Source of the DNA: Pseudomonadota bacterium
Lineage (GTDB): Bacteria > Pseudomonadota > Alphaproteobacteria > Sphingomonadales > CAKZYD01
Reading direction: 5' to 3'
Assembly (NCBI GenBank): GCA_039026755.1
Contig: JBCCLR010000003.1
Coordinates: forward strand, 1-56,903
Length of the DNA: 56,903 bases
Translations under genes and position numbers: made by a program
In this document: in pieces, positions 3,589 to 55,549 of the stretch
Numbering within the stretch: position 1 is the first letter of the stretch
Layout: each line of letters starts with the position of its first letter
Notes under the pieces: model-generated
What the model saw: only the letters and a program-made list of their open reading frames with translations
Database searches by the model: none
What the model was told of the DNA's origin: nothing

Positions 3589-3629
3589 TCAGCCGCGCGG
3601 TGCTGATGCGGTAGAGCCGTTCAGCATCC

Positions 3630-6354: not shown

Positions 6355-6400
6355 CTCATTTCTCCCTTTGTCGACCTGCCAATATCATCTTGGCCGGACG

Positions 6401-7222: not shown

Positions 7223-7377
7223 CGCCAACTCCTCCATCAAAACGCCAACTTAAAGACTATGATAAAAAGCCTATCATAGAATAAAAAATTGCTGGTTAAG
7301 GTAAATATTCATAATCTTATTTCAAAAAAAAGCTCTATTTCGTTATCAAATTATTAGGCTGGGGTTGCTTTCCTTGA

Positions 7378-7420
7378 AAAATGCTGCGCACAATATATTT
7401 ATTGTGCATTGCCGCATTTT
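7378..7420. promoter_or_regulatory. TGC/GCA-rich inverted repeat, candidate PhaR operator
   Basis: AAAATGC..GCACAATA-N4-TATTGTGC..GCATTTT between the divergent bdhA and phaZ genes; resembles TGC-rich alphaproteobacterial PhaR sites. Confidence 0.5.
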
Positions 7421-7496
7421 ATTGGCTTTCGCACGCGCGTCAAACAACAACGCAAAAAAAACGTTTGACCGATACAAAGACTGAGGGAACACGCAG

Positions 7497-8714: not shown

Positions 8715-8724
8715 TCCGCTTGCA

Positions 8725-9444: not shown

Positions 9445-9469
9445 GCCGTGTTATACGGAGGAACATGCT

Positions 9470-9937: not shown

Positions 9938-10493
9938 ATCTATCATCCAACAGGGGTGCACCGTCGCCAAAATGGGCGATTGGGGTATAGTGTGCGCCCT
10001 GCGTTCCAAGTGTACTCATAAATAAAGTGAAGTGGTCCACCCGCCATGTCGGCGTTTTAAAGCCGCATGCCGCTTGTAAAAAACTATCCAGAGAACCGTG
10101 GCGACCGCTAAACCGGGCAAGCGTGATGTGTGGTTCAAACTGCCGACGATCTGGCGCTATGTCGGCCCGCGATAACAGCGCTTGGTCTATTTTGTTGTGT
10201 AGTGCAGTGAGCGCTATGCGCGGTTTCACGCCTGCCCAAAGCGCCCGCGCTTTACTAAGTTTACCAAACAGCCCTACGCCTTCGCCGTACACGTCAAATG
10301 GCGCGAAAGACACCCGGTCTAATGCGCTTTCCACGTCGCTTGCGACAGCACCATCCACATCGCCGATAAAACGCAAGGTCATGTGCAGCTGGTCTGCGCT
10401 TTGCCAGCGTGCCTTCGTGACACCGCCTTGTGTCCACAGGAGTGTTTGTTTGATATTCTCGGGAATGGCGAGCCCAACAAATAAACGTGGCAT
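9912..10493 (-). CDS. thpR: RNA 2',3'-cyclic phosphodiesterase (2H family)
   Basis: MPRLFVG start; two HxT motifs (HMTLRF, HITLAR); RBS GGAGG-like. Confidence 0.88.
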   Translation of the reverse strand: MPRLFVGLAIPENIKQTLLWTQGGVTKARWQSADQLHMTLRFIGDVDGAVASDVESALDRVSFAPFDVYGEGVGLFGKLSKARALWAGVKPRIALTALHNKIDQALLSRADIAPDRRQFEPHITLARFSGRHGSLDSFLQAACGFKTPTWRVDHFTLFMSTLGTQGAHYTPIAHFGDGAPLLDDRFIFVSAGD

Positions 10494-10518
10494 GGCGACC
10501 TCTTGGCGATAACGCAGG

Positions 10519-12438: not shown

Positions 12439-12596
12439 AGCGCAAGCCCATGTTTTGCGCGGCCATTTGAGCCTTCATAGAGTATCTTGCCGTGCAATGG
12501 CACCCCCGCTGGCCCACTCTCCTTGAAAAGCCATGGCAACTGAGCTGCTTTTCACGCTAGGGTGTGCGCGCAAAAAACTGACCTAGGGGGACAGTC

Positions 12597-13142
12597 GTGG
12601 CTCAAAAACCGCCGCGCGCACGGGCCGTACAAGCGATGAAGCAGGTGTTTGCGCAACATGGTTATGAAGGCGCCAGTTTAACAGCCCTAGGCAAAGCCGG
12701 CGGACTTAGCAAAGCGGGCCTATATCATCATTTCCCTGGCGGCAAGGCAGACATGGCCAGCCAAGTCCTGGTGGCGTCAGGAAAAGATTTCACCCGGCTC
12801 GTCCTGGCGCCGCTGCGCTCCAAGGATCCGGCGGCGGAACGCTTGTACGCAATGCTCGATGGGCTCAATACATACTATCAAAGCGGCACAATCAATTGTT
12901 TGATGAACACACTCGCCTTGGGTGAAGGATTGCCGGCTTTTGGGCCCAATATAAAAGCGGCGATCAGCGCGTGGCTTGCCGCACTTACGCCAACGCTTGA
13001 AGAGCTTGGTGAAGCCGATGGGGCGCATGCCGCGCGCACCTTGGTCGCAACCGTGCATGGCGCACTTATTCAGACACGGCTGTTTGACGACCCGGGCTTT
13101 TTTACCGAAATGCTCACCACCTATCGCCGCCGCTACCGTTAA
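12597..13142 (+). CDS. TetR/AcrR family transcriptional regulator
   Basis: N-terminal HTH: F..HGYEGASL...GLSKAGLYHHFPGGK. Confidence 0.88.
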   Translation: MAQKPPRARAVQAMKQVFAQHGYEGASLTALGKAGGLSKAGLYHHFPGGKADMASQVLVASGKDFTRLVLAPLRSKDPAAERLYAMLDGLNTYYQSGTINCLMNTLALGEGLPAFGPNIKAAISAWLAALTPTLEELGEADGAHAARTLVATVHGALIQTRLFDDPGFFTEMLTTYRRRYR

Positions 13143-14515
13143 CGCGGCCAGTGGGCGTGATGCGCATCAATGACAAACGCATGCGCATGGCGCACCGGCG
13201 CATGGTAATGCGGATGGGCATGCGGCTCTGGGCCTTCCCAGCCCTCATGCGCATGTTGGTGATGGGCGTCATGCACATGCAAATGCGTATGGTCGAGCGC
13301 ACAGTGCTGGTGCTCCAGGGTCTCTGGGTCCCGCGCCGGCCAGACGCGCGAGGCACACAGCATTGCCACACACGCAATGCCAGCAAGCATAAGAAAGGCC
13401 GTTGGTAGGCCAAAATCCGCGCCGAGCCAGCCGGCAAGCACATAGGTCAGCAAAAAGCAGGCGTGTGATAGCGAAAATTGCGCGGCGAAGAAAGCAGGCC
13501 GATCGCCTTGCTGAGCCGAGCGCCGCAGTAATCTGCCACTTGGTGTAGTGATCGCCGCGTAACCTGCGCCAAGGATGACCCATATCGCCAGTGCCGGGGC
13601 AAAACCAGGCATGACAGCGCCGCAGCATAAGCCTATGAGCATCGCGGCGCCGCCACTAAGCATGACAGTTCGGTCCGGCAGGCGCTGCAAAAGACGGGGC
13701 AGCAAAAATGCCATGCAGATAGAGCCAGTGCCATAGGCCGCAAGCAACGCAGCGAGGTAGCCTTCCCCGAGGCCAAGCGAACCGCGCACATACACGACAG
13801 AATTGACAATCACCATCGCGCCGCCACTTGCCGCGGCTAAAGACATGGCAAAGAGGCCGCGCAGCCGCGGCGTCGCCAAAAAACTGCGCAAGCCAAAAAG
13901 CGCCTGCGCTGCCGTGCTGCGGGCCGCAAACACGGGTGCTTGCAGCGGCAGTTTCGACCAAACAATAAGCGCTGCTGAGATAAGAAAAGCAGTGGCATTC
14001 AATGTGAAGAGGGCGTCAAAACTGACCAGGAGAAGCGCGGCGCCAGCCAATGCCGGGCTCACCAGAGCCTCAAAATCATAGGCCAAACGCGACAGCGAAA
14101 GCGCCTTGGTATAGCGCGCTTCATCCTCAAACACATCAGGAATAACGGCCTGGAACGTGGGCGTAAAACACGCAGAACACGCCTGCATGAAAAAGATAAG
14201 CGCATATATGTGCCAGAGTTGCGACACGAACGGCAGCGTGCCCACGCATATGGCCCGCAACAGGTCCAGACCAATCAAAAGGCGCTTGCGCGGCAGCATG
14301 GTCGTGAGGCTGGAGGCAAGCGGCGAGAGCATTACGTAAGCCACCATCTTAATCGCGAGCGCTGTACCCAGAACTTTCCCGGCCTCAGCGCCGGCAAGCT
14401 GAAAAGCGAGCAAAGCGAGCGCGACCGTCGTCAGGCCGGTACCCAGCAAGGCAATGACTTGCGCAGCAAATAAGCGCGCATAGAGCGGGTTGCGCAGTGG
14501 CTCAAACATCGACAT
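13139..14515 (-). CDS. MFS transporter with His-rich C-terminal tail (NreB-like metal exporter)
   Basis: About 12 TM segments; tail HQH..HTHLHVHDAHHQHAH..HAHPHYH..HAHAFVIDAHHAHWP. Confidence 0.8.
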   Translation of the reverse strand: MSMFEPLRNPLYARLFAAQVIALLGTGLTTVALALLAFQLAGAEAGKVLGTALAIKMVAYVMLSPLASSLTTMLPRKRLLIGLDLLRAICVGTLPFVSQLWHIYALIFFMQACSACFTPTFQAVIPDVFEDEARYTKALSLSRLAYDFEALVSPALAGAALLLVSFDALFTLNATAFLISAALIVWSKLPLQAPVFAARSTAAQALFGLRSFLATPRLRGLFAMSLAAASGGAMVIVNSVVYVRGSLGLGEGYLAALLAAYGTGSICMAFLLPRLLQRLPDRTVMLSGGAAMLIGLCCGAVMPGFAPALAIWVILGAGYAAITTPSGRLLRRSAQQGDRPAFFAAQFSLSHACFLLTYVLAGWLGADFGLPTAFLMLAGIACVAMLCASRVWPARDPETLEHQHCALDHTHLHVHDAHHQHAHEGWEGPEPHAHPHYHAPVRHAHAFVIDAHHAHWPR

Positions 14516-14605
14516 GTTACGTAGCGGATGGCGCTAGGCAGCGCAACGCCGCGCAGCGGTGCAGGCCAGAGAAACCGAAGGGCCACAAGGACGGGGGGAA
14601 AAGAC

Positions 14606-15733
14606 ATGCAGAAGTGGGTATCAATCGCGGCACTAACGACAGCGGCGGCGTTAGCCGGTTGCAGCGGAGATGCCGGACGACCGTTCTCAAGCGCACAAAC
14701 CGGCGGGGATACGCCGGTGCTGGTGCAGCCAGACGGCAGCTACCCGACGCGGCCGCTGGAAAAAGATACCGTGGTCGTAAAGGTATTGCAGACCACTGTG
14801 AGCTCTTTGCAAGACGCGCCAAGCATCCAACAGGGCCTGGATCAAAACCTGGCACATATGGAAGAGATGGCGGAAAAAGCCTGTTCAACCGGTAAAAAGC
14901 CAGACTTTCTCTTGTATCATGAGTTTCCCCTGACCGGGTATTCCAGCGGGACGCGCGATGAAAAGCTGAAATATACGGTGCAAATTCCCGGGCCGGAAAC
15001 GGACCGCTTAGGCAAGGTTGCAAAAGCCTGTGACAGCTACCTGATCTTCGGAACCTATGCCACCGACGCTGATTGGCCGGGCCATATTCTGTCGATCAAC
15101 GCCGTAATCAACCGGGACGGCATGGTCGTTAAAAAGTTCTGGAAATCCAGAAATATCAAAAATTACTCTGAGAAAACCGAGATCCCAACAACAACGGTTG
15201 AAAATGTACGCGACAAATATCGCGCCATGTATGGCATTGATGAAGAATTTCCCGTGCTGCAAACCGAATATGGCAACATTGCCGTCTCGACCGTGCAATG
15301 GGATCCGTTTGTGTTTGCCGCCTTTGCCATGAAAGGCACGGAAATCATGTTCCGAACCGCTACGCTGTTTCAAGAAAATGATGTGACAGCCATGGCCAAA
15401 GCCAATGACTTTTACTCGACCATGGCCAATATCGCCTTTGATGTCCCCGGCTATAAAGCGGGCGAAAGCGTGATCGTCGATAACAAAGGCAAGCTGATGG
15501 CTAAATCGCTGTCAAAGACCGAGGATGACATTATTGAAGCCGAAATACCTATTGCCGCGTTCCGAAAAAACCGGCGTTTGCCCAGCTTCGCTCTTGAAAT
15601 GTCGATGCCCGTGATCAGCCAATACGTGCAAGAACACCCCCTCAACCACCTTGACTTACCGGCGGGCGAATTGCCGCAAACTGGTGAGGATATGAAGGCT
15701 CTGCTAAACGGCGTAAGCCGTTACGACAACTGA
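14606..15733 (+). CDS. Lipoprotein of the carbon-nitrogen hydrolase (nitrilase) superfamily
   Basis: Lipobox LAGC; HEFPLTG (catalytic Glu), K.WK (Lys) and G.S.IVD..G fold motifs; ATG at 14606 after a purine-rich RBS. Confidence 0.75.
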   Translation: MQKWVSIAALTTAAALAGCSGDAGRPFSSAQTGGDTPVLVQPDGSYPTRPLEKDTVVVKVLQTTVSSLQDAPSIQQGLDQNLAHMEEMAEKACSTGKKPDFLLYHEFPLTGYSSGTRDEKLKYTVQIPGPETDRLGKVAKACDSYLIFGTYATDADWPGHILSINAVINRDGMVVKKFWKSRNIKNYSEKTEIPTTTVENVRDKYRAMYGIDEEFPVLQTEYGNIAVSTVQWDPFVFAAFAMKGTEIMFRTATLFQENDVTAMAKANDFYSTMANIAFDVPGYKAGESVIVDNKGKLMAKSLSKTEDDIIEAEIPIAAFRKNRRLPSFALEMSMPVISQYVQEHPLNHLDLPAGELPQTGEDMKALLNGVSRYDN

Positions 15734-15802
15734 GCAGTGCCCGCAGATAACGGGCCTGCATGCGTCTGGCCTCATGTTTGACAAAAGGCGTCTAACCTTG
15801 TG

Positions 15803-16690
15803 TTACCGCGTCGGCTCGGGCTCGCCATCAACCCGGTAATCATAAAAGCCCCGGCTGGTTTTTTGTCCAAGCCAGCCGGCCTCAACATATTTAACCAGCA
15901 GTGGGCATGGCCGATATTTTGAATCCGCCAAGCCCTCATAGAGCACCTGCATGATCGCTAGGCAGGTATCAAGCCCAATGAAATCGGCGAGCTGCAGCGG
16001 GCCCATGGGGTGGTTGGCGCCGAGCTTCATTGCTGCATCAATGGCCGCGACCGAGCCGACGCCTTCATACAGCGTATACACCGCTTCATTGATCATCGGC
16101 ACCAAGATGCGGTTCACAATAAACGCGGGAAAGTCCTCAGAATTTACCACGACCTTGCCGAGGTTTTTCGCCAGGCCGGTTACGCTTTCAAAGGTTGCTT
16201 GGTCCGTTTGAATGCCGCGAATAACCTCCACCAGCTTCATCAGCGGCACAGGGTTCATGAAGTGCATCCCCATGAACTTTTCCGGCCGGTCTGTGACTGA
16301 TGCAAGCCGGGTGATCGACAGCGAAGAGGTATTCGTGGCGATCAGCGCGTCTTTATTCAGGTCTTGGCACAGCGTTTCTAAAATTTGCTTTTTGACCGCC
16401 TCTTGTTCCGTGGCGGCCTCAACGGCAATATCAACATCTTTAAGCTGATCAAGACTATCACTTGGCGTAATCCGCTTGAGCGCCGCCGCCATGTCCGTGA
16501 CAGAGATTTGGTTCTTTGCCACCTGGCGCTGCATATTGCGCTCAATCCGGCCAATGCCTGCGCCGGCGCGCTCTATATCAACATCTGAGATGATAACATC
16601 CAGCCCCGACAAGGCGGCCACATGGGCGATGCCATTGCCCATTTGCCCTGCCCCGATAACCCCCATCGATTTCATGCCTTTATACTCCAT
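15803..16690 (-). CDS. hbd: 3-hydroxybutyryl-CoA dehydrogenase
   Basis: GAGQMG, VEAATE, NTSS, MHFMNP, FIVNR, PMGPLQLAD; start may be 16690 or 16675. Confidence 0.9.
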   Translation of the reverse strand: MEYKGMKSMGVIGAGQMGNGIAHVAALSGLDVIISDVDIERAGAGIGRIERNMQRQVAKNQISVTDMAAALKRITPSDSLDQLKDVDIAVEAATEQEAVKKQILETLCQDLNKDALIATNTSSLSITRLASVTDRPEKFMGMHFMNPVPLMKLVEVIRGIQTDQATFESVTGLAKNLGKVVVNSEDFPAFIVNRILVPMINEAVYTLYEGVGSVAAIDAAMKLGANHPMGPLQLADFIGLDTCLAIMQVLYEGLADSKYRPCPLLVKYVEAGWLGQKTSRGFYDYRVDGEPEPTR

Positions 16691-16734
16691 TTGCTGCAGC
16701 GCACCCTCCGCGCGCAGCACTGCGTTAGCTACAT

Positions 16735-16774
16735 ACAAAATAGGCTAGACCAGCGATAGCGCCAATCTAGCCTA
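16735..16774 (-). terminator. Stem-loop between etfA and hbd, possible terminator or processing site
   Basis: TAGGCTAGA...TCTAGCCTA inverted repeat followed by TTTTGT on the minus strand. Confidence 0.45.
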
Positions 16775-16823
16775 ATATATTGAATTTTCCGCAACACCCT
16801 TGATGCTGCGGCCAGTAATCCGC

Positions 16824-17753
16824 TTAGACTTTGTTGGTCAATTCGGGAATTGCCTCAAACAAATCGGCGACAAGACCGTAGTCAGCAACAGAAAAGATCG
16901 GCGCTTCTTCATCCTTGTTGATCGCCACGATGACCTTCGAGTCCTTCATGCCAGCCAGATGCTGAATGGCGCCGGAGATGCCAACTGCGATATACAGGTT
17001 AGGCGCTACAATTTTACCGGTTTGACCGACTTGATAGTCATTGGGCACATAGCCTGCATCCACTGCCGCGCGTGATGCGCCAACAGCAGCATTGAGTTTA
17101 TCGGCCAGCGCTTCAATGATATCGAAGTTTTCACCCGAGCCCATGCCGCGGCCGCCTGATACGATAATATCGGCTGACGTAAGCTCTGGACGGTCAGATT
17201 TAGACAGTTCCTCACCAATAAAGCTGGACTTTCCGCTGTCACCCGCGCCGGACACTGCTTCGACAGCAGCGCTGCCGCCTTCTGCGGCAGCTTTATCAAA
17301 ACCGGTGGTGCGCACGGTAATGACTTTTTTGCCACTTCCCACTTGGACTGTTGCAATAGCATTACCCGCGTAAATAGGGCGCTCAAACGTACTTGCGTCA
17401 ATCACAGCGGTAATGTCGGAGATCTGCGGCACATCCAGTTTCGCAGCAACGCGCGGCATGATGTTTTTACCGGTTGTGTTCGCTGCGGCCAAAACGCCGT
17501 CATAGCCATCCATCAATCCGAGAATAAGCGGTGCGACATTTTCCGCCATAGCGTGTTCATAGGCAGCATCATCGGCAAGCAAAACTTTCGATACGCCCGA
17601 CACTTGAGCCGCGGCATCGGCGGCAGCGCTGCAGTTGGTGCCCGCAACCAGAACATGCACGTCACTATCCACTGCCGCTGCAGCGGTGACGACATTAAGC
17701 GTGCTATCACGCAGCGCCTGATTATCATGATCTGCAAAAACCAAAACGGTCAT
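16824..17753 (-). CDS. etfA: Electron transfer flavoprotein alpha subunit
   Basis: [39 protein letters not shown]. Confidence 0.96.
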
Positions 17754-45894: not shown

Positions 45895-45969
45895 GCGGGC
45901 GTAGCTCAGGGGTAGAGCACAACCTTGCCAAGGTTGGGGTCGTGAGTTCGAATCTCATCGCCCGCTCCA
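45895..45969 (+). tRNA. tRNA-Gly (GCC)
   Basis: 75-nt cloverleaf GCGGGCG...CGCCCGC-T-CCA; anticodon arm CAACC-TTGCCAA-GGTTG; T-loop GTTCGAATC. Confidence 0.97.
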
Positions 45970-45970
45970 G
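45922..45970 (+). repeat. att core (tRNA side), 49 bp
   Basis: Identical to 55501-55549. Confidence 0.95.
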
Positions 45971-46114
45971 ATTTCTCAAGATAATTCAGTGAGTTAAGAC
46001 AACCGCCTCTGGCGGGATTTCTGGCCGAGTAACTTCCAGGTAACTTTAAGAGATACCTTTCGGGTCACATTCTAGGTCTGAGTCATCGTCTTGCGGCGAT
46101 AGCCTTAAACAAGT

Positions 46115-46843
46115 TCAGGTTCCAAATTTTGAGAAAACGTTGAGCACGAGCGTTTCGACGTGTGCGGCCACTGTGTTTTCAGCAAGCTTATAGCTGTTCG
46201 GATGCCCGCAACCATTTCGTCGGTCCAAGCACTGGGCAAGATCCTTCTTTACATTTTTTCCAATGACCGAGATTGCCTGTAAGACATCCAAAAAATCAGT
46301 TTCCTTCATAAGGCCCAAATCATCAGAAGTCTTTGCAGGCTTCCATTTTGAATTCCGTCGGCTCGCTTCGGCGTTGAATGTGGTCAGATGATTTTTAACT
46401 ACTTCCTCGTGCAAAACAGCTACTGCGCCCAACCAGGACATGACTACCGCCGATCTATACAGCTTAGATTCGTGACAGCTAATTGCCTCTTCAACAAACT
46501 CTCGTACCCGCTCACTAGAGATAACGGAGGCATGCTGCCGGAGTTCTCGAGCAACCCGATGGACGGCGGGATTGCCAGAAACCACACCGATGTTTGCAAG
46601 ATGCTCTTTTCCTGTGTCAGACAATTCCCACCCACTGGGAGTTCGGATCGCTTTGCCTTTTGATCGCGCTAATAGGGATGAGACGTTCCAACCTTTCGGG
46701 ACTCTAAATCCCGCTTGAGTTGCGCGGTCTTTCAAATCCTTTATCTGGCAAGCCGCTTCCATAGAGGAAAGTAAGAATAATAACTTATCAGTCGCGTCAA
46801 AGTCTTTATGCAGCAAACGCTTGAGATCAGCCAAGTTCAGCAA
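46115..46843 (-). CDS. wHTH + HEPN-like (DUF4145-like) putative RNase effector
   Basis: N-terminal wHTH-like segment (NVSSLL...WELSDTG); C-terminal EEA..C....YRSAVV and RxxxxH motif RNGCGH; TTG start overlaps the upstream gene. Confidence 0.7.
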   Translation of the reverse strand: MLNLADLKRLLHKDFDATDKLLFLLSSMEAACQIKDLKDRATQAGFRVPKGWNVSSLLARSKGKAIRTPSGWELSDTGKEHLANIGVVSGNPAVHRVARELRQHASVISSERVREFVEEAISCHESKLYRSAVVMSWLGAVAVLHEEVVKNHLTTFNAEASRRNSKWKPAKTSDDLGLMKETDFLDVLQAISVIGKNVKKDLAQCLDRRNGCGHPNSYKLAENTVAAHVETLVLNVFSKFGT

Positions 46844-47345
46844 GATTTTTCAGTGCCTCATTTCTAGCATCCATGGACAGCGCATACTTTCCTGATGATC
46901 GCCCCAAAAGTTTGCCAGTTTTTAATAACGAGTTCAGGGTGTGGGTCAGGTTATTTCCAATAGTCTTCTTGTAGTAAGCTGTGGCAAGTTTCGCAGCTTC
47001 TAAGATGTCCGATCGACCAAACTCAGGCTTTTCTTCAACGAAGTGCAGATACGTGCAGGCTGCCAAGATAACATCTGCCGCGCTTTCGTGCCCCATATGT
47101 GTAATTAGCGTTTCGACCGAAAAGTCGTACGTTTTAGTCTCGGCAACGCCAGCCGAGTTGTCCTCGAGGACCAGAGCATCTTGGTGCTCGATAGGTTGCG
47201 GAGCTAATTCCACAGAGTGGGAGGAGGGTACCAGTTCCACCATACCCTTGAGGATATCGAAAGCCTCTTCATGCAGTTTGTCTTGATCTCCTTCGATCTC
47301 GACTTCCGCCAGCCCAAGTTTCAATTTCACTCGTCGCTTGGCCAT
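46827..47345 (-). CDS. Hypothetical protein, N-terminal beta-hairpin (VKLKLG..EVEIEG) + C-terminal wHTH-like domain
   Basis: RBS GAGG; NNLTHTLNSL...GKYALS; overlaps both neighbours. Confidence 0.7.
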   Translation of the reverse strand: MAKRRVKLKLGLAEVEIEGDQDKLHEEAFDILKGMVELVPSSHSVELAPQPIEHQDALVLEDNSAGVAETKTYDFSVETLITHMGHESAADVILAACTYLHFVEEKPEFGRSDILEAAKLATAYYKKTIGNNLTHTLNSLLKTGKLLGRSSGKYALSMDARNEALKNLAELG

Positions 47346-47869
47346 GCCGCACCTCTTTCGCCGATCATGTTCTTTATAGCGTTAGAGCCCGCCACAGTGA
47401 CTTTGTAGGTCTTGCGAGACTGTTGGCTGGACCCGCTCTTTTTCAGCTGAAGAACCAGTGCTGGCTTTTGCTCCTTTAGCGATGTCAATGCAGCAGTGAC
47501 GTTCGCCAATCCATGGCCCAAGTTCTTCAAAAGCGAATTTGCTGACTGTGAGTCGAAGGCTTCATGGCCCTCGTGATTCTGGAGCCAATACCCCGCAACA
47601 AGTGCCTTGTCAGCATTTGTGCCGGGGTCCGCGCTATCGAAAAGCTCCGCGAATGAATCGAATTCCCCGGGGGCGTCTTCAGCTTCCGCTTCACTACTAG
47701 TAGGCTGAGCGTGTGTTACCTTTGGTGACGCGCCGTGTAGGTCGATCTCGAGGAGATTGACCAAGTAGTTCAAAACGCGTGATCGAGCCTCTGGTGCGAG
47801 TAGCTCTAATTCATCATGTACTTTTTTGATCGCAGCAAATTCGTCAACTGCGGATTTTTCGGTGTCCAC
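47327..47869 (-). CDS. Hypothetical protein, N-terminal helical hairpin + C-terminal wHTH-like domain
   Basis: GTG start after GGAG; NVTAAL.SL...TYKVT..G. Confidence 0.7.
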   Translation of the reverse strand: MDTEKSAVDEFAAIKKVHDELELLAPEARSRVLNYLVNLLEIDLHGASPKVTHAQPTSSEAEAEDAPGEFDSFAELFDSADPGTNADKALVAGYWLQNHEGHEAFDSQSANSLLKNLGHGLANVTAALTSLKEQKPALVLQLKKSGSSQQSRKTYKVTVAGSNAIKNMIGERGAAWPSDE

Positions 47870-48020
47870 TGTCTATCACTCCATTCAAGTGACAGATAAA
47901 TGGTGACTGATTCTTGAAGTTCAAGAGTTATGAATCTTTTAGTAAAAGAATCATATTTTCCGCATTAGACGTAACAGAGCTCAGCTTTTTCCAAGATGCG
48001 TGATACAAGGCCAACTTACG

Positions 48021-48356
48021 TTAGAACTGTACTTGTGATGCCTGCCGCGCAACCGTCTTGCATATCGCTAGGCCAAACATCACCTCCCGGTCTGTGGGAC
48101 GGTTCGGCTTACCGATACCATTGAAGACACTGTAATAGGCCCTGCGATTTGGGCGATCTTCTTTCGCCGTTAGCCAGCCCATCACTGCCAGGACCGGAGC
48201 AGGCCTAGCGCCCAGTGCTTTAGCGATTTCTGTGATCTCGCGAGGTACCAATGTTCGGTCCAGAGCGATTGCCGCTGACGCACAAGCGGCTGCCGCAGCC
48301 CTCGTTTCTTTGGAAAGCTGTTCGATTGCTGCTCCCAAAAAGATCTCGTCGTCCAT
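48021..48356 (-). CDS. Hypothetical protein
   Basis: RBS GGAG; co-oriented downstream of the packaging genes. Confidence 0.6.
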   Translation of the reverse strand: MDDEIFLGAAIEQLSKETRAAAAACASAAIALDRTLVPREITEIAKALGARPAPVLAVMGWLTAKEDRPNRRAYYSVFNGIGKPNRPTDREVMFGLAICKTVARQASQVQF

Positions 48357-48372
48357 ATCGATCTCCGTTAGC

Positions 48373-49035
48373 TCAGGCCGCAGCCGCTTTTCTCAAGGCG
48401 TCCATCTGCGTGGGCTGAGCGTTTCCCCAGGAATGGAGTTTGGAAGCCAGCACGGCAGTGGCGTGGGACCCCATCCGCTCCATCAGGGAAAGAGCCAGTT
48501 CGGCCTCGTGTTTTTGCGCGCCCAGCTCGGGGGCATGGGCCGCTATCGCTGCTGCTTTGAGCCTTTCTTGCTCGTCTTGGGTAACGCCGGAGAGTGACGC
48601 TGGCCCGGACAGAACCGCCGAAGAAATGCGGGGGTCCTCGCGCACCATTAACAACGCCTTGGCAGGGTCACTGCGGACGAGCGACCTGATCTCGGCAGCC
48701 ATTTGAGGAGAGATGGTCGGCTGGACCACGTCTCTTATCTTGCCGTCTGTAAATGCGATCTGCTTGCGCACCGTCTCGTGCGCGTTGTCCATCGCCTTCA
48801 ATCCGCGCTTCAGCGCCCGGTCGCCAACCTTAGTCAGCTCCGAGAGCTCGACCTCTGTGTTCTTGGCTGCATCCGAGATGAGCGTCCAAGTTTCGTGGAG
48901 CGTGCGCAGCGCTGCACGAGCCGTCTCCGCGCTGGGCCCATCACCCTTCACGGCCAGCATGTCGATTGGCGCGTTGGGCACCTCTCGCCGCTTCATCCGC
49001 TGGGCCAGGGCTGGGTCTGAGTAAGTTTGGGTCAT
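48373..49035 (-). CDS. Hypothetical alpha-helical protein
   Basis: Strong RBS AAGGAG just after the terL stop; Ala/Leu/charged helical composition. Confidence 0.7.
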   Translation of the reverse strand: MTQTYSDPALAQRMKRREVPNAPIDMLAVKGDGPSAETARAALRTLHETWTLISDAAKNTEVELSELTKVGDRALKRGLKAMDNAHETVRKQIAFTDGKIRDVVQPTISPQMAAEIRSLVRSDPAKALLMVREDPRISSAVLSGPASLSGVTQDEQERLKAAAIAAHAPELGAQKHEAELALSLMERMGSHATAVLASKLHSWGNAQPTQMDALRKAAAA

Positions 49036-49050
49036 GATCTGTCTCCTTAT

Positions 49051-50442
49051 TTAGAGGCCTACGGTTCTTCTGATCGTCGCGCGTTGGACGCGTTGCTCGG
49101 CAAGCATGTATGTGCACGCATCCAACGGGTGGTCTGGGCAGTGTGGGGTATCCGCGACATCATCTGGGTCGCGCTCGTCCCTGACCGAGTTGGCCAGCGC
49201 GTGGATCAGGAAACGACACCTGTTGCTGATGTAGAGATGCGGACGGTTACTCCGCTCAATGGTCGCAGCGAGCATGGAGCCCATGAGGGTCCAACGCTCC
49301 GCCCGCCGACCCTTCTTCGGGAGGGACAGTGACCAGAATTGACCAGTCTGCTGCATGATCTGCAGGACGTCGTCGCCCTGTAGGCCGCGCTGATTGTCGA
49401 CCACCCCACTGGGTTGGCGGACACCGTAGTTGGCGCACATATTGGCGACGCGCTCCGCGAGGCGATCTGCCTGCCACTCAGATGACGTGTTAAGGTTGTC
49501 CTCGGTCCAGATGACATCGGTCACCTCGTCGACCACGATCACGCTGTCGCGTGGCAGTATACGCCCGTCCGGGAAGGTAAGGTCACGCTTGGCCCGGATA
49601 CCCAAATGACCCACCGAGGGGGCGGAAATCCCAAAGTCGATGCCGACGCGCGTGTCGAACTTGTCCCGGTCGAAGTGGTGGTCCCATTTGATAACGTGCA
49701 CCTCGGGGTCGAACATCGGCCACATCAAGCCCTCGCCCCGCGTCCAGTCGCCAAACAGCCACTGTTGCAAGCGCACCGGGTCTCCGTGGCAGGCCTCGCG
49801 GAGCCGCCGGATATACGCCTGCTGGTCTATGAAAGGGTTGTCGGCTGGGCCGGACTTGATCGTGATCCAGGGTTCCTGCGCCTCAGTCCCGTCGATCTTT
49901 AGGTGATATGGTTCGTGGTCCCGGCGGTTCTTGATGTGGCGCTCGAAGATGCGCCCATGGAGCGGTCCGCCAGGGTTGCCCACGTAAACGACGCGCGTCG
50001 GTACACCATCGGGCGCGCGCAGGTTACTCCTCAGCAACCGGAGCACCTTCTCGCTGCTGTGCTGGGTGATCTCCTCCACGATGAGCAGAGTAAAGTTCTT
50101 GCCTTGAAGTTTGTCGTAGTCCGCCGTCCGCTCTATCGCGGCGAGCGTGATCGACCCGCCGTTCCAGCGCAGTATCTTCTCCGCCCGGTTGTAGCTGTGG
50201 GACCCGAAGGAGAAGCCCGAGGTTATCAGGCGTAGCAGGTCGTCCTCGAAGTCTGACAGCGCTCGCAACGTGCGGCGGACTATTAGGACGCTGGCGTTCG
50301 GTCCGTGCTCCTGAAGGTGGAGCGCAGCCAGTGCCACCGCCGCGATTGTCTTCCCGCCACCCCTTGCGCCCAGGAGGGCGAGGTTCACCCCCTCGGGTGC
50401 TTCGAGAACGGACTGCTGAAAGGGGGATATGCGCTCAAGCAT
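49051..50442 (-). CDS. terL: Terminase large subunit
   Basis: Walker A GARGGGKT, Walker B LLIVEE, coupling motif GNPGG, RNase H-like nuclease motifs GIDFG and DHPLDA..Y. Confidence 0.85.
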   Translation of the reverse strand: MLERISPFQQSVLEAPEGVNLALLGARGGGKTIAAVALAALHLQEHGPNASVLIVRRTLRALSDFEDDLLRLITSGFSFGSHSYNRAEKILRWNGGSITLAAIERTADYDKLQGKNFTLLIVEEITQHSSEKVLRLLRSNLRAPDGVPTRVVYVGNPGGPLHGRIFERHIKNRRDHEPYHLKIDGTEAQEPWITIKSGPADNPFIDQQAYIRRLREACHGDPVRLQQWLFGDWTRGEGLMWPMFDPEVHVIKWDHHFDRDKFDTRVGIDFGISAPSVGHLGIRAKRDLTFPDGRILPRDSVIVVDEVTDVIWTEDNLNTSSEWQADRLAERVANMCANYGVRQPSGVVDNQRGLQGDDVLQIMQQTGQFWSLSLPKKGRRAERWTLMGSMLAATIERSNRPHLYISNRCRFLIHALANSVRDERDPDDVADTPHCPDHPLDACTYMLAEQRVQRATIRRTVGL

Positions 50443-50881
50443 CCTGCGCCTCCGGGAGATAGCGACGGCGGTACTCGTCCATGTCGAGCTTGCTGGGGAG
50501 CTGTATGGTCTGCTGTCGGTTGTCGTTGATCGTTATGTGGGCCGGGGTGCGTGTCCCCTCGTAGCCTCGGCGGGCCTTGAGGAGGAAGATGGCCGCTGTT
50601 ACCGCGCCTGGAGTGTCGCCCAGGGCGGTGCGGTAGAGACGGCTGACGAGGGCATCCTCCATGCTACTGTAGCCACGGTCCAGTGCCTCGCAGACCTCAG
50701 GCTGGCGCTTCTTGATCTCCCTGAAGGTCGAGGCCGCTACGCGGAGTTGCTTGGCTATGCTGGTTTCTGAGCAACCGTTGGCTGCCATCTCCTCGACGAT
50801 CTGAAGCCCGCGTGTACCGACGCGTCTGGTATGGCCACCCTCGTTGCGGATGACCGGCGGCTCAGCCGGGTGATCTGCCAC
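50435..50881 (-). CDS. terS: Terminase small subunit-like HTH protein
   Basis: G.S...IA..L.V...T.....K..PE..EA...G and A.IF.LK pattern; overlaps the terL start. Confidence 0.7.
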   Translation of the reverse strand: MADHPAEPPVIRNEGGHTRRVGTRGLQIVEEMAANGCSETSIAKQLRVAASTFREIKKRQPEVCEALDRGYSSMEDALVSRLYRTALGDTPGAVTAAIFLLKARRGYEGTRTPAHITINDNRQQTIQLPSKLDMDEYRRRYLPEAQDA

Positions 50882-51090
50882 TGCAAGTTACCTGCAAAGT
50901 TACCTCTCGACTTAACAGTCTGATCTTGCCGGGTTTTCCTGCCCAGGCCCTTACCTCTACAGGGTTGGGTCTTTTTGGAGCGAGTAATCCGCCGGATCGT
51001 TTTCAAATTAGGCTGAACTGGAGGAGAAGGCTCGCACCAAATCGTTCATCTGCGGCTTCGTTTCTGAACTTTCGCGAGGACTTGCTCATG

Positions 51091-51275
51091 AGGGGGGGGC
51101 GGGGGGTCCGGGTATCTGGCCTTTTTCCTTGTCGTCCTATCGATAGATATACATCTATCGCTTCAGACCTTTTTACCTAAAACCCGGACCCCACGGACCC
51201 CAACAAAATTATTGTTTAATTTCAATTCCATAACAAAAATGGAAGCATTGTAAAACACGCCCCCCAAACGCCCCC
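51091..51275. other. Candidate replication origin or packaging site of the island
   Basis: GGGGTCCGGGT / ACCCGGACCCC inverted repeat, an extra CGGACCCC copy, central palindrome CGATAGAT-N4-ATCTATCG, AT-rich tract, ACGCCCCC x2. Confidence 0.5.
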
Positions 51276-51303
51276 TCCTGCCTATGCCGAAAACCAATGT
51301 GCC

Positions 51304-52629
51304 TTAAAATGGGGGCTCAGGGCGAGAGATAAGCTTGATGCCCCGGTAGACCCGGGGTTCGCGCAAGTGCAATTGTTTGTCGATCCACGGGCCCTTAGCC
51401 TGTCTCACGTTGTAGCTTGCCTGCAAGACACTGGTTAGCTTCCCAAGGGGAACAGGCTTGGACCCGTTGCCGTCACACCACCGCCTATAGGCCTGGTAAA
51501 GCGCCTGTTTGTCCACATTTGCGTCGGGATCAAGCCCGCAACACTCATCCAAGAAACCGGTCAGCGGAGAGGCAGCCGCCCGAGTAGCCTCCAAGACTTC
51601 CTCTCCCGAAGGAGGTTGCCTGATCATCCCGCCATCGGATTTCAATAAGCGCCAACCTTCGATACCCCACTTGAGTATTGCTCCTCGCTCTGTCCTGAGT
51701 CGTCTTTTGAGCCCGAGATCTTCTTTCCCTTTGAAGGATCTCGTCATTGGTAATACAATTAATCGGCTCAAAAGTGCACTGGTATCGTCGGCAAGTTCCA
51801 GTGGCTCGTTTGTTTGAATGACGATTCGAGAAGTAAGGACACCTTCCCAAGCTTCTTTGTGTTTCCGGTCGATAGTGAAGTGATCTTCGCCGGTGACCCG
51901 CAGGAGGACATCGGTAATCGCGCCCCGGTTGGTTGTTCGCCCATCTAGGCGAGCCTCCGATAGCAACATAAGCTGTTTGCCAATGGCCGGGGACAAACCG
52001 AAGTTACCAGCGATGTTTTGAAGTGACGGTGAGCAGACATTTTTTCTGCCGATCACTTCGGCCATCACGTCGCCTATAGTCCCTTTGCCGGAACGAGGCG
52101 GACCCATGAGCTGGAACATCCGGTGCATACTGGTATCTGTTGAGAGAAGATAGCCAAAGATTCGTTGCAGCACTTGGATGCACTCTGGATCATCGTCCCA
52201 AAGGCTATTGAGAAATTTCAGCCATTCGGTTGGTTCACCGGCGTCAGGATCATAATCGTAGTCCAGCGCATTCAAGTTGATGTATTCTGGCGTATGGGGA
52301 AACGTGTTTCCAGTATCCAGATCTACCAGTAGGTTCCGGCACGATAGGATGTTCTCTGCCAGTGGCTTACCCTTCCATGTTGGAAGACTTACAGCCGCCT
52401 GAGCGCGCAAAGAAATCAGGTGCGACCTGATTGTGTTGATCAACCCCGAGCCCGGCTTCTTCCCTCGATCCACCAACCACATTGCCAACATCTTCTGCAA
52501 GAGGTCCTTGTCCAACTCTTGGTAACATGGCCCAACCCAAAGGAACCATTGACCAGTCATTCGGAATAAGTGGTGTTCTCGAGCGAAGTCTTGTGCAAGG
52601 GCCCAGGTGTCAATTTGTTCCTCAGACAT
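51304..52629 (-). CDS. D5/P4-family SF3 helicase (phage/plasmid primase C-terminal type)
   Basis: D5_N-like region (NLLVDL.TG...PHTPE), W..FL, Walker A GPPRSGKGT, TGED...DRK.K, TNE. Confidence 0.88.
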   Translation of the reverse strand: MSEEQIDTWALAQDFAREHHLFRMTGQWFLWVGPCYQELDKDLLQKMLAMWLVDRGKKPGSGLINTIRSHLISLRAQAAVSLPTWKGKPLAENILSCRNLLVDLDTGNTFPHTPEYINLNALDYDYDPDAGEPTEWLKFLNSLWDDDPECIQVLQRIFGYLLSTDTSMHRMFQLMGPPRSGKGTIGDVMAEVIGRKNVCSPSLQNIAGNFGLSPAIGKQLMLLSEARLDGRTTNRGAITDVLLRVTGEDHFTIDRKHKEAWEGVLTSRIVIQTNEPLELADDTSALLSRLIVLPMTRSFKGKEDLGLKRRLRTERGAILKWGIEGWRLLKSDGGMIRQPPSGEEVLEATRAAASPLTGFLDECCGLDPDANVDKQALYQAYRRWCDGNGSKPVPLGKLTSVLQASYNVRQAKGPWIDKQLHLREPRVYRGIKLISRPEPPF

Positions 52630-53644
52630 CGGCTGCCTCCTTGGCAAGGTAAGAGCCGATCTGCCGGAGTGCATGGACCTCAGGGTTTTTTCTGGGCTTA
52701 TACTTGTTTTTGACCTTGGCCCAATGGGTTCGGTGCGAGACGAGGTGGGTGTCTTCTAGACCCGCTGGCATGAGGAGTAGGTCGCGTATCCGCTCATTCG
52801 GCAACTCGGCCCGCACGCATGCACCTATGAAGGCCCACTCATGCTCGCTGCGAGATCTAAACCTCTTTCCTTCAGCGTTCGTTGGGTTTTTGCGCAATCC
52901 TACCACCCACGGCGGTAAGAACTCCCAGAGATTTTCCTCTTCGATTATCTGACTAGGCTCTAAAGTTAGATCGACTGATCGGCGTCTCGGCGCAGGGTCA
53001 ACTTGCCCGGCTTCTTCAACTGGTAAAACCGCGCTCCAATTTTCTCGATAGACGTAGCAAAGTCGATTGTCGCGACCATGTTTTCGATTTCGGGTCCCTG
53101 GTAGGCGGAAAACATGTTCGCAAGAATGAGTGCTGTCAGGTGACAGGTCCTCGAACTCGCTTTGGAGCCACACTGCTATGGCTTCGCCTTCCTTTTTAGA
53201 AACAGGAGCGCTGAGACGCCACATGGCCTGCCAACCTCCGCCGGTAAACGCTACATAAGTTGGGGGCCAACCAAAGCGATCCAGTTCGTCGACGACTGCT
53301 GGGTCAGGGTCATCTATGTCCAAAAAAACTGCCCGGACACGAATGATGTTCTTCTTTTTTCGAGATAGCCCAGAAAGGCGATTTCGTTTTGGGGTATTTG
53401 CCAAGAAGTAAACGCAGCCTTCTTGGTTAGCTCGAATAGCGGCCTCTACCGCGTCGTCGAGATCGTCAAACGTGTAGCCGGGCCAATGGATTGCAGGGCA
53501 GATATGCCATGGCCCACCCAGCTTCTCAAGAAAGCTGGTTATTTGGTTTCGATCAGGCTGAGGAAGAGCTAGGTTACTATTCTCGTCTGTACCTAGGTCT
53601 TGGGTCCTCGCCGGTTCTTGCTCAACTCGGCGGGGACTTTCCAT
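52622..53644 (-). CDS. RepB-type DNA primase (AEP superfamily)
   Basis: FLDID, PT....TGGGWQA.WRL, FRLPGT.N.K; TAATG coupling with alpA. Confidence 0.8.
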   Translation of the reverse strand: MESPRRVEQEPARTQDLGTDENSNLALPQPDRNQITSFLEKLGGPWHICPAIHWPGYTFDDLDDAVEAAIRANQEGCVYFLANTPKRNRLSGLSRKKKNIIRVRAVFLDIDDPDPAVVDELDRFGWPPTYVAFTGGGWQAMWRLSAPVSKKEGEAIAVWLQSEFEDLSPDSTHSCEHVFRLPGTRNRKHGRDNRLCYVYRENWSAVLPVEEAGQVDPAPRRRSVDLTLEPSQIIEEENLWEFLPPWVVGLRKNPTNAEGKRFRSRSEHEWAFIGACVRAELPNERIRDLLLMPAGLEDTHLVSHRTHWAKVKNKYKPRKNPEVHALRQIGSYLAKEAADV

Positions 53645-53913
53645 TATGATCCCCCTCCCCGTTGACGTTTGTCTAGCCAAGCAAGTACGTCGCCACGCCG
53701 ATATAGGACACGACGCCCGACCTTAACGTAGGGCGGCAACCCTGTGTTGCCGGAGCTGCGGCCAATCTCAAAGAAACCGATCGACAGAGTTGTCAACTTC
53801 GACACTTCCTCGGTGGTCAAAAGTTGATCTGGGTCGGCTGTCGAGGACTTCGGTGGAATGAGCTTAGACAGCTCGTCGCGGACTAAAGCCCGCACAGTGT
53901 TTTCCAATTCCAT
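53644..53913 (-). CDS. AlpA/excisionase-like HTH protein
   Basis: LLTTEEV...., PPYVKVGRRVLYRR.DV..WL; RBS AGGAG. Confidence 0.88.
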   Translation of the reverse strand: MELENTVRALVRDELSKLIPPKSSTADPDQLLTTEEVSKLTTLSIGFFEIGRSSGNTGLPPYVKVGRRVLYRRGDVLAWLDKRQRGGGS

Positions 53914-54309
53914 AGTGTTCTCCTAGCGAGCGCAGGTGAGTTTCCAGACGCTCGAAAGTAGGCAAAAGGGGAGTGTTTGCGCCCAGAGCATAGTTTCTAG
54001 GCACATTTTTCATGTAGATTTCTGGAAATTTCGGCTCCCGCCGTCACAAATCGCCTTCGCTTTGTCTCCTACAGCGATGATTTGCGAAAGCAGCTCAACC
54101 TTACTTCTCGTCAGAAAGTACTTTACTTCTCGTCTGAAGTAAGTTTACATCAGGCTCACGATTACAGAGATGTAAGAGTCAAAATTTAGAAATATCAATA
54201 GCATGTCTTCCAAGCTACTATTGATCTAAAAATATGACTTATCGCTTACCGGGACTTCCGCTTTCGTTATCAACAAACTAAATCATTTATAGCTTGGTTT
54301 AGGTACTGC

Positions 54310-55383
54310 CTAAACCCCAAAAATTTTCATTAAGCGGAAACCGATCTTTTCAGCCCATTCTGCTACTGCGGCGGTCGGAATTTCACGCTGACCGTAGACG
54401 TCGGTGACACCTCTTCTGTCCCTGTGGTTGAGCAGTTTCTGGACAATCGGAAAGGGGCAACCGACCTCTACCTCTGCCACGTACTTCCAGTGGTGACGCA
54501 GTGCATGTTCCGAGCAAAGGTGTCTCAGCGACGGTGGTTTGGGATTGGATATGTGTTGCCCTGGTTTGTTGCCCGGAAACACCCAGTCTGCTTGCCTTGG
54601 AAGGGCGGTGATCACATTTAGCGCGGCGGATGAAAGCGGGAGGTCAAAAGCGCGAGTTGGACCCCCTTTCGGGCAGGGAAGATGGAGCCAACCATCCTTG
54701 AGCATGGACCACCGCGCGGTCTTGGCGTCGTTCTCCCTGAGCCCAGTGAGGGCCACGAAGAGCCAATAGGCGCGAACGATAGGGGACTCAGCGGCCTGTA
54801 TAGACTGCCACCACACTGCTGGATCGCCCACGGTCTTGCGCTTTGGTGCCTCGACTATCTTAAGCGGGCGTATGGTCTGGCCGGGCCAGGGGTCCGACGT
54901 GGCCGTCCGGTAGACCGTTCCGAGATGCCTGAGCATGTCGTTTGCTGCGTGCTTGGACTGCTCACCCACGCGCATCTGCATCCTTACCAGCCCAGCGTGG
55001 GTGATGGAGGTAAGCGGTTTTTCCATGAGTTCGTCGACATGTTTCTGGAACTGCATGCGCCTGTTTTTGACCGTCGCCTCGGAACCACCGTTGAGCAGGC
55101 AACGTTCGGCCCAGATGTCGAGCGCTTCTCGGAGTGTCGCTGCGCGCTGGCTCCGCCCCCTATGGGCTAGGTCCGCGGCCCTGTCCCTAGCCGCGCGAAG
55201 TCCCACGTCGGGCCACCGGCCTAGCGTCAGACGGTTGCCACCGCTGCGCTGGAATACCCAGCTCTTGGTCCCTGTCTTACCGACCCTGCACCCCAAACCG
55301 GGATTTCGTTGGCACCAATAAAGGCCCGGCTTCTGCCCGCGATCCATCCAGGCTTCGGATAACGTAACAGAGCTTCGGGCCAT
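54310..55383 (-). CDS. int: Tyrosine integrase with N-terminal arm-binding domain
   Basis: GL..RV...GTKSW...LG.WP; catalytic residues in TGLR, K, HALRH, LLNH and VY. Confidence 0.92.
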   Translation of the reverse strand: MARSSVTLSEAWMDRGQKPGLYWCQRNPGLGCRVGKTGTKSWVFQRSGGNRLTLGRWPDVGLRAARDRAADLAHRGRSQRAATLREALDIWAERCLLNGGSEATVKNRRMQFQKHVDELMEKPLTSITHAGLVRMQMRVGEQSKHAANDMLRHLGTVYRTATSDPWPGQTIRPLKIVEAPKRKTVGDPAVWWQSIQAAESPIVRAYWLFVALTGLRENDAKTARWSMLKDGWLHLPCPKGGPTRAFDLPLSSAALNVITALPRQADWVFPGNKPGQHISNPKPPSLRHLCSEHALRHHWKYVAEVEVGCPFPIVQKLLNHRDRRGVTDVYGQREIPTAAVAEWAEKIGFRLMKIFGV

Positions 55384-55500
55384 GAAAGTAACTTCCTGGG
55401 TAACTTCTAGCGTATAACCCAGCTTAGCCCTGATAGGCAGAAAAGTAAATCAAATCAACATGATAGTCGAAACAATAAGTCTCAAAAAGTGAGCCATGTT

Positions 55501-55549
55501 ACCTTGCCAAGGTTGGGGTCGTGAGTTCGAATCTCATCGCCCGCTCCAG
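55501..55549 (+). repeat. att core (distal), 3' fragment of tRNA-Gly
   Basis: Identical to 45922-45970; lacks the tRNA 5' half. Confidence 0.95.

Follow-up and report, generated by a model that had tools for sequence, protein, structure and literature searches.

The window analyzed here is a stretch of 56,903 nt from a bacterium of the Sphingomonadales (Alphaproteobacteria; NCBI GenBank assembly GCA_039026755.1, contig JBCCLR010000003.1). Within this window, an integrative element is inserted at a tRNA-Gly(GCC) gene, the sole tRNA gene that was recognized in the whole window by ARAGORN. The element is bounded by two perfect 49-nt direct repeats (attL and attR), which consist of the final 48 nt of the tRNA gene plus one further base, and the distance between the starts of the two copies yields an element length of 9,579 bp. 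Its anatomy and its conservation among relatives indicate that it is probably a helper-dependent satellite resembling the phage-inducible chromosomal islands (PICIs), equipped with a private and complete terminase.

Between the repeats there are 11 open reading frames (ORFs), all of them intact and all located on the minus strand. Their transcription order is int, an alpA-like gene, primase, helicase, terS, terL, orf220, orf111, orf180, orf172 and orf242 (Table 1). Within modules, neighboring genes overlap or are separated by 15–16 nt, and the non-coding gaps of the element measure 144, 151, 422, 396 and 117 bp. A preliminary description of this DNA had reported intact att repeats together with co-oriented int, alpA, primase, helicase, terS and terL genes; family matches agree with this assignment, but the number of hypothetical genes is five (orf220, orf111, orf180, orf172 and orf242) and not two. 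No second copy of any element protein was found elsewhere in the 3.73-Mb assembly of 330 contigs. An empty attachment site (attB) could not be demonstrated, as the right-flank gene in a genome of the same genus (72% identical) has no adjacent tRNA gene.

The same description saw no recognizable capsid, portal or repressor gene, which holds as far as tested by family scans, helical structure models and gap lengths. In Pfam, PHROGs and NCBIfam, the five unassigned ORFs, the largest of which encodes 242 aa, matched no family of head, portal, protease, connector or regulator proteins. None of the 11 ORFs matched a tail, holin, portal or head-tail family, and no element ORF matched an HNH endonuclease family. 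No Pfam match at E ≤ 0.1 was obtained for six small ORFs located within or next to the gaps. Head or portal genes cannot hide in the gaps because these are too short, the largest being the one of 422 bp.

Table 1. Features of the element and its integration site (positions refer to the window)
Feature	Position	Strand	Basis
tRNA-Gly(GCC), integration target	45895-45969	+	ARAGORN
attL, 49-nt direct repeat, 3' part of the tRNA gene	45922-45970		repeat search, copies 100% identical
orf242, low-GC cargo, AF_1680/DUF4145-like, possibly HEPN-type	46115-46843	-	phrog_27609 4.4e-11
orf172, cargo	46827-47345	-	no family match; overlaps both neighbors by 17–19 nt
orf180, cargo	47327-47869	-	no family match; 47–48% GC vs 54.8% in the genome
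orf111, small helical protein conserved as part of the packaging operon	48021-48356	-	homologs after orf220 in 7 relatives' loci (alignment)
orf220, all-helical hallmark protein, gene linked to terS and terL	48373-49035	-	directly after terL in L001–L006 and L018
TerL, terminase large subunit, full length	49051-50442	-	Terminase_6N 2.5e-10; phrog_2 5e-28 over residues 7–454
TerS, small subunit of the terminase, 8-nt gene overlap with terL	50435-50881	-	phrog_309 2.8e-18
Repeat-rich intergenic region (422 bp), candidate replication origin and/or packaging site	50882-51303		repeats (see text)
D5-type (superfamily 3) replicative helicase	51304-52674	-	DUF5906 1e-12; D5_N 3.9e-8; Pox_D5 2.5e-4; phrog_6088 1.3e-61
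RepB-type primase	52622-53680	-	RepB_primase 3.1e-8; phrog_10514 2.6e-10
AlpA/Xis-like helix-turn-helix (HTH) regulator, 89 aa	53644-53913	-	HTH_17 3.1e-6; phrog_66 'excisionase and transcriptional regulator' 0.0018
Tandem pair of 22-nt repeats showing internal dyad symmetry, located upstream of alpA, candidate operator	54098-54141		repeat search and sequence reading
int, tyrosine integrase with arm-binding domain	54310-55383	-	Arm-DNA-bind_3 4.3e-10; Phage_integrase 3.6e-5
attR, second 49-nt copy	55501-55549		repeat search, same repeat family as attL

The terminase and its lineage

Annotated phage TerLs could be aligned by tblastn over 90–98% of the element TerL. When one genome for each of 185,579 species was scanned with TerL, seven loci (L001–L007) from different alphaproteobacterial families were returned. 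TerL is the best-kept gene of the element among these relatives, with 60–71% identity, compared with 32–76% for int, 32–53% for orf220 and 26–34% for the primase. TerS, which had no match to a TerS family in Pfam, is 52–84% identical. The TerL columns G25–K31 (GARGGGK), E124, D269, D349, D437, H438 and D441 are invariant in all seven aligned sequences; we take them to be the Walker A and Walker B motifs and the acidic residues of the nuclease, as known for TerL proteins. With these characteristics, the terminase of the element looks functional and old.

The relation to sequenced phages is remote. Among 50,697 phage records, 274 matched TerL, all of them below 60% identity and the best listed ones at 26–28%; these records include marine HMO-2011-type podophages of Roseobacter, Pelagibacter and Puniceispirillum. 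Matches to the TerL clade patterns in IMG/VR reached 23–30% at best. A collection of 5.8 billion proteins contained 45 clusters (P0155–P0199) that are 51–72% identical to TerL over the full length, and past these clusters the full-length identity falls to 43% or less. In 11 of the 45 clusters, the longest contig measures 9.0–13.1 kb, a weak hint that the element often assembles alone. In a quick maximum-likelihood tree of 41 rows, from which TerL ORFs below 430 aa and that of L007 were excluded, the close TerL sequences (n = 8) form a single clade with an SH-aLRT support of 100 and a stem of 1.77 changes per site. A profile search of the PDB with TerL gave no match at E ≤ 0.01. In these comparisons, the TerL lineage is distinct from the known phages.

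A family of islands of about 10 kb

The seven loci come from records of a Hyphomonadaceae metagenome-assembled genome (MAG), Labrenzia alba, Altererythrobacter lutimaris, Hyphomonas sp., Actibacterium atlanticum and two unclassified Pseudomonadota MAGs. The gene terS directly precedes terL in all of them, and an orf220 homolog directly follows terL in six (L001–L006). Upstream, int, alpA and primase occur in the same order in five of the seven (L002–L006; tblastn), with L001 being truncated by a contig end. The locus of Actibacterium atlanticum (L007, TerL at 10001–11404) possesses primase and helicase genes and has no orf220 homolog after TerL. An eighth independent locus with the same gene order was found on a marine metagenome contig (L018), and two further loci (L021 and L022) are identical to L005. 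The conserved order, with TerL at 62–71% identity in seven further loci, is int-alpA-primase-terS-terL-orf220(-orf111).

The preliminary description had suggested searching for elements with the same synteny at tRNA-Gly, and the targets of the loci found here include tRNA-Val, tRNA-Gly and tRNA-Leu. Their att repeats of 18–51 nt lie at tRNA-Val(CAC), tRNA-Gly(GCC) in two cases, tRNA-Gly(CCC), tRNA-Leu(GAG) and tRNA-Val(GAC). The seven elements for which both att ends are available measure 9,579, 9,794, 9,990, 10,158, 10,440, 10,483 and 10,658 bp. The 2–3 kb behind orf111 are unlike in every element, and the ORFs in this part were all singletons in an all-against-all BLAST comparison. A constant length in spite of changing cargo would be expected from a packaging limit, and the size band of 9.6–10.7 kb suggests a constraint by either a small redirected capsid or a fixed headful fraction. 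With its synteny kept and its size held, this type of element is no accident of decay, and the 9,579-bp element is a member of a conserved, apparently undescribed family of islands of about 10 kb.

The opposite view deserves consideration, namely that a cf-PICI-like (capsid-forming PICI) satellite or a small prophage has degraded, lost its head genes and kept the terminase as a leftover, so that it only excises and reintegrates or is immobile. The next tier of TerL sequences, which are 30–38% identical to the element TerL, bears on this view; its alignment drew 44 IMG/VR loci. A portal gene, in the form of a 503–521-aa ORF after TerL, is present in five of them (L057, L059, L070, L080 and L081), of which L059 was scanned (phrog_145, 5.9e-97) and the other four share its BLAST cluster. 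A major head protein gene is present in seven of the 44, called from L062 as the scanned representative (phrog_247, 6.8e-94), with the other six in the same BLAST cluster. An orf220-family gene was found in four (L083, L048, L065 and L066) by local hmmsearch with E-values from 1.6e-17 to 2.6e-10.

One of the latter, L066 (IMG/VR, 7,866 bp), has a 123-nt terminal repeat that closes a circle of 7,743 bp. The only genes on this circle are int, two small ORFs, primase, terS, terL and a 228-aa orf220-like ORF spanning the junction, which reduces the architecture to a minimal form. The same genes occur, circularly permuted, in L083. In L048 and L065, the orf220-like gene is followed immediately by a small ORF and then terL, and L065 has terS ahead of the orf220-like gene. 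L062, with the order int-primase-terS-terL-181-aa ORF-head protein, groups with L066 at a support of 100 and shares 66% identity with it in int, 80% in TerS and 71% in TerL. The TerLs of L062 and L060 are 71–72% identical to that of L066, and both loci encode a coiled-coil ORF of 175–181 aa and a phrog_247 head protein after terL, with no portal in the 10.3 kb seen. Within this sub-lineage, either the 181-aa ORF plus head protein or the orf220-like gene fills the same slot behind terL. Since L062 and L066 share int, TerS and TerL, capsid-bearing and capsid-less forms can be close kin.

The head genes in the wider family and the kinship of L062 and L066 favor degradation, as does L007, which shows that members do decay. 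However, the eight close relatives neither show a capsid or portal match nor have space for such a gene, and both size and gene order are stable in at least five bacterial families even though the cargo is exchanged. Furthermore, TerL is the most conserved gene with all its motif columns intact, there are no pseudogene fragments, and the capsid-less L066 closes into a circle in a viral collection. We therefore regard a degraded origin as unlikely, and the earlier impression of an element without obvious decay is confirmed by the intact ORFs and by the architecture kept across relatives. The preliminary description had itself named the deletion of capsid genes carried by relatives as a point that would speak against it. 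Such genes are lacking in the eight close relatives, but they do exist in the sub-lineage of L062, which is remote from the element (~31–33% TerL identity).

Among the 44 loci, an 11,881-bp contig with int, primase, terS and terL (L045) contains a 774-aa ORF after TerL (8935–11259) that matches tail tape-measure families (phrog_2854, 1.8e-77), which is odd for an element of such size.

Two of the matches of the orf220 profile in sampled genomes are smaller tRNA-Lys islands without a TerS or TerL homolog, which represent sister elements. L042 (genome G653, ~4241–13960) encodes an integrase, an AlpA-like protein, a primase-helicase, an orf220-like protein, a phrog_9747 protein and a small ORF, and L031 (genome G295, ~8094–16270) encodes an integrase, an AAA_25 ATPase, an orf220-like protein, a DUF5681/phrog_9747 protein and a small ORF. 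Neither orf111 and the small ORFs of elements of this type, nor TerS and their phrog_9747 protein, showed similarity.

The protein encoded by orf220 can be considered a hallmark of such elements, as its gene is linked to terS and terL even in distant relatives. With a profile built from nine sequences and a threshold of E ≤ 1e-10, 185 of 1.84 billion cluster representatives were recovered, most of them 205–250 aa long. The AlphaFold2 (AF2) model, folded with nine relatives, consists of helices only (pLDDT 88.7) and has neither the HK97 fold nor a portal fold, so that the possibility that the 220-aa ORF encodes a capsid or portal protein, raised in the preliminary description, finds no support. 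There was no match for orf220 in Pfam, PHROGs, the PDB or BFVD. Foldseek returned nothing at E ≤ 0.001 against the PDB and BFVD, and the highest Z in the wide VIA-align search, obtained with designed or generic helical bundles, was 11.4 and thereby below the bar of ~13 that this tool sets for helical proteins. The sequence profile search of the PDB yielded coiled-coil noise only and the Atlas unnamed clusters only. A PHROG scan of 72 orf220 relatives gave four single weak matches, one of which (to a head scaffolding protein, 0.0051) was not relied on. A scaffold origin found no support in an hhalign comparison with the 181-aa ORF of L062 and the 190-aa ORF of L047 that precede the head gene, with probabilities of 0.4 and 0.1, respectively. 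The AF2 model of orf111 comprises five helices and a disordered loop (pLDDT 78); no known fold was matched, the best hits being at E 1.9 in Foldseek (2ao9, a Bacillus prophage protein) and at Z 4.4 in VIA.

The integration, switch and replication genes complete the conserved part. The Phage_integrase match of the integrase amounts to 24 bits, under the Pfam cut-off of 27.1, and the protein is 76% identical to the integrase of L003. The HTH_17 score of the AlpA-like protein is 27.8 bits at a cut-off of 27, and Pfam's own AlpA family did not match this 89-aa protein. The 422-bp gap after the helicase gene contains two tandem CGGACCCCA words at 51185–51202, inverted arms of 20 nt at 51094–51113 and 51182–51201, an 8-nt CGATAGAT/ATCTATCG palindrome and an AT-rich run. 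The equivalent position is repeat-rich in all five relatives examined, with repeat words that differ per element; in L002 there is a perfect 24-nt inverted repeat with arms 84 nt apart. Iteron origins adjoin the replicase genes of PICIs. By analogy, the iteron-like region is a candidate replication origin, possibly including the packaging site.

The GC content forms a mosaic, with ~57–65% for terS, terL, orf220 and most of orf111, ~51–56% for the replication genes and ~47–53% for the final three ORFs, compared with 54.8% for the genome. These three, orf180, orf172 and orf242 (46115–47869), constitute a low-GC operon with overlapping stops and starts, which may be a defense or toxin-like module. 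For orf242, a weak PD-T7-3 match (3.6e-5 over 39 residues) and an Atlas language-model feature score of 0.98 to AF_1680 clusters were obtained. Its translation displays an R-x4-H motif near the C-terminus, which may link it to HEPN proteins.

Such cargo raises the question of whether the whole element could be a mobile defense island, in which TerS, TerL and orf220 would mainly sabotage the packaging of invaders as a decoy or competing terminase, instead of moving the island, and the distal genes would be further defense cargo. The variable, low-GC and unassigned character of the cargo and the AF_1680/DUF4145-like orf242 with its PD-T7-3 match fit this proposal, and known satellites interfere with helper packaging, as described in PMC11417361. 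However, in the satellites described in the literature considered here, interference and self-transfer go together, so that defense would be a by-function rather than a rival explanation. Packaging of the element itself is suggested by its constant size and by the circular relative recovered from a collection of viral contigs, and ten cargo ORFs of relatives gave no Pfam family over threshold and one weak PadR match. We assign the defense proposal a low probability; the variable slot of 2–3 kb may nevertheless move defense genes.

Candidate helpers and the proposed way of transfer

Two gene clusters in the same assembly could be relevant as sources of proheads. A GTA-like (gene transfer agent) cluster on contig C73 (locus L012, ~5017–15013) encodes an Sf6-like TerS, a Terminase_6N/6C TerL, a PF04860 portal, an S78 protease, an HK97 capsid, a gp6-like connector and GTA-gp10. 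A prophage-like head-tail cluster on contig C49 (locus L013, ~1723–17206) encodes TerL_ATPase/TerL_nuclease, portal, capsid, a 586-aa lambda-like tape measure and a 1,383-aa ORF, and is a possible resident helper.

The preliminary description had considered docking of the terminase onto GTA proheads. The element would then ride an RcGTA-like (Rhodobacter capsulatus GTA-like) agent of its host, with its own terminase loading element DNA into GTA heads. The GTA-like cluster on C73 would suit this scenario, and the element TerL also matches Terminase_6N. Nevertheless, the element TerL is unlike the GTA TerL (best BLASTP E 0.28). No PF04860 portal was found in three of the five host genomes of close relatives, among them Altererythrobacter lutimaris, in which the locus lies on a 2.94-Mb contig of a ~3.0-Mb assembly. 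Since only two of the five hosts have this portal, a resident RcGTA-type agent is not a general requirement. In addition, the capacity of RcGTA-type heads given in PMC13669383 is ~4–4.5 kb, compared with the 9.6 kb of the element. This part of the earlier proposal could not be maintained, and transfer by a GTA is very improbable.

As the helper, an infecting or resident tailed phage is the most likely candidate, and the family most likely travels inside the capsids of another phage. In the PICI-like satellite that we favor, terS-terL-orf220(-orf111) fits best as a hijack module. Infection by or induction of a helper phage would switch on alpA, followed by excision at the 49-nt att sites and replication that starts in the iteron-like region separating the helicase gene from terS. 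The element's own TerS-TerL would recognize and cut satellite DNA and pump it into procapsids made by the helper, with the satellite TerL presumably docking on the helper portal. The particle would inject the DNA into a new cell, where Int would insert the element into tRNA-Gly. The orf220 protein may act at the interface of capsid and terminase, where it could redirect helper capsid assembly, bridge to the helper portal or block the helper terminase.

A more far-reaching variant, which we advance tentatively, is that the family represents a deep unnamed satellite class in which the private terminase and orf220 replace head genes and the motor engages the portals of unrelated helpers. This would involve either a looser TerL-portal recognition or orf220/orf111 as adaptor or capsid redirector. 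If it is true, swaps of the L062/L066 type make the family a series that links capsid-forming and capsid-stealing satellites.

Several observations weigh against a helper-dependent satellite. No helper was identified, and we know of no phage with a portal that accepts so remote a TerL. The element TerL has no BLAST-level relation to either TerL of its own genome, and the portals, capsids and TerLs of this genome had no BLASTP match to the loci of the distant TerL relatives. No function was assigned to orf220 or orf111, and the orf220 family is rare in genomes: its profile matched two of 400 other Alphaproteobacteria genomes sampled and four of 400 other Pseudomonadota, all four in the class of the window. 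The TerL gene of L007 contains one internal stop at about residue 176, due to either a sequencing error or decay of this copy. The stretch is present in two marine metagenome runs from a single study, one of which may be the source of this DNA. Their contigs cover the element and show no reliable joint between the att copies and no amplification. The joints listed in one of them (run X1), with sides of 21–27 nt, include none linking the att copies. Moreover, the depth per contig in this run was 13.8–14.0 for the element contigs (45946–55530) versus 18.4–19.1 for the flanks. The element was not amplified in this sample, because its depth is below that of the flanks; as a weak hint, the figures may mean that a part of the host population lacks the element.

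In the same run, a 214-bp segment inside terL (49696–49909) is represented by two contig variants, at depths of 11.4 and 5.2, which differ at nine positions. The sample contains two strains, either of the element or of its host.

The family raises the question of how a foreign TerL, at most ~28% identical to that of any sequenced phage, uses a helper portal. The orf220 and orf111 products, as conserved proteins of no known fold family, are candidates for this step. Because carriers of the family are in culture, going by the record names (Labrenzia/Roseibium alba CECT 7551, Altererythrobacter lutimaris JGD-16 and Parvularcula marina), the question is accessible at the bench.

Comparison with known satellites

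PICMIs (phage-inducible chromosomal minimalist islands) are small marine integrative satellites with an int/alpA/primase core. Compared by description only, they are without packaging genes according to the preliminary description, whereas the element has two. The gene products Psu, Delta, Sid and Ash, which we take to be typical of P4-like satellites, were not detected in the general Pfam and PHROG scans of the five unassigned ORFs. RcGTA-type agents have a head-tail cluster, no integrase and package random host DNA, whereas in the element int and att sites are present and structural genes are missing. The mini HK97 genomes, as described in PMC13669383, are a mirror image, with a head protein and scaffold and without a terminase.

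The PICI model of SatelliteFinder, as set out in PMC10085698, has five core parts, of which at least four are needed; tail, holin, portal and head-tail genes are forbidden and terL is allowed. The element possesses an integrase, an AlpA-type regulator next to int, a primase-replicase and a small terminase, and the family scans found no forbidden gene among its 11 ORFs. For the capsid-modification part, orf220 and orf111 were without a match in Pfam, PHROGs, the PDB and BFVD. Because the model lets terL pass, the element may satisfy it and be called a type B PICI. It resembles Gram-negative PICIs such as EcCICFT073 in the dedicated site, the int-alpA-primase order with an adjacent origin-like region, the presence of terS, the lack of tail, lysis, portal and connector genes, the size of ~10 kb and the variable accessory genes at the far end. 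It differs from PICIs by a full-length TerL, listed in PMC10085698 as a part specific to cf-PICIs, by the conserved orf220/orf111 pair and by its marine alphaproteobacterial hosts.

The cf-PICI model has 11 core parts, of which at least nine are needed according to PMC10085698, and the parts described include capsid, protease, portal, connectors, HNH, TerS and TerL (10.1101/2022.09.08.507074). The element holds at most five of the 11; TerS and TerL are present, while capsid, portal, protease, connectors and HNH are not. With the cf-PICI EcCIEDL933, as presented in the same source, it shares int-alpA-rep and an own TerS and TerL, and the cf-PICI TerL is likewise split from its phage homologs by long branches (10.1101/2022.09.08.507074). 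In contrast to EcCIEDL933, the element lacks capsid, protease, portal, connector and HNH genes and has a size of 9.6 kb versus 15.4 kb. As it has no head genes and is smaller than a cf-PICI, it would have to take heads as well as tails from a helper. The earlier statement that the element fits neither cf-PICIs nor PICMIs is in line with the lack of head genes alongside TerS and TerL. That it represents a distinct alphaproteobacterial type requires correction: similar capsid-less small elements of unknown hosts also occur in the wider IMG/VR TerL family (30–43%).

The virion encapsidated integrative mobile elements (VEIMEs; Eppley et al. 2022, PMC9618062) are, in the account given there, similar in their marine hosts including Alphaproteobacteria, in integrase, AlpA and primase/helicase genes and in the lack of major capsid genes. 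Some have TerS and "motor-like ATPases", and they range from <5 to 16.8 kb. However, VEIMEs are defined by their recovery as concatemers inside virions, whereas the runs considered here are assembled contigs of bulk metagenomes, and the TerL of VEIMEs is expected to come from the helper (PMC9618062). In the literature full texts searched, no described satellite family has TerS and TerL and lacks head genes; the VEIME supplementary datasets may hold such elements. The family extends satellites with packaging genes to marine Alphaproteobacteria. As far as the sources cited above describe them, satellites borrow the TerL of the helper (PICIs, VEIMEs) or bring a whole head (cf-PICIs), and the family of the element brings only the motor.

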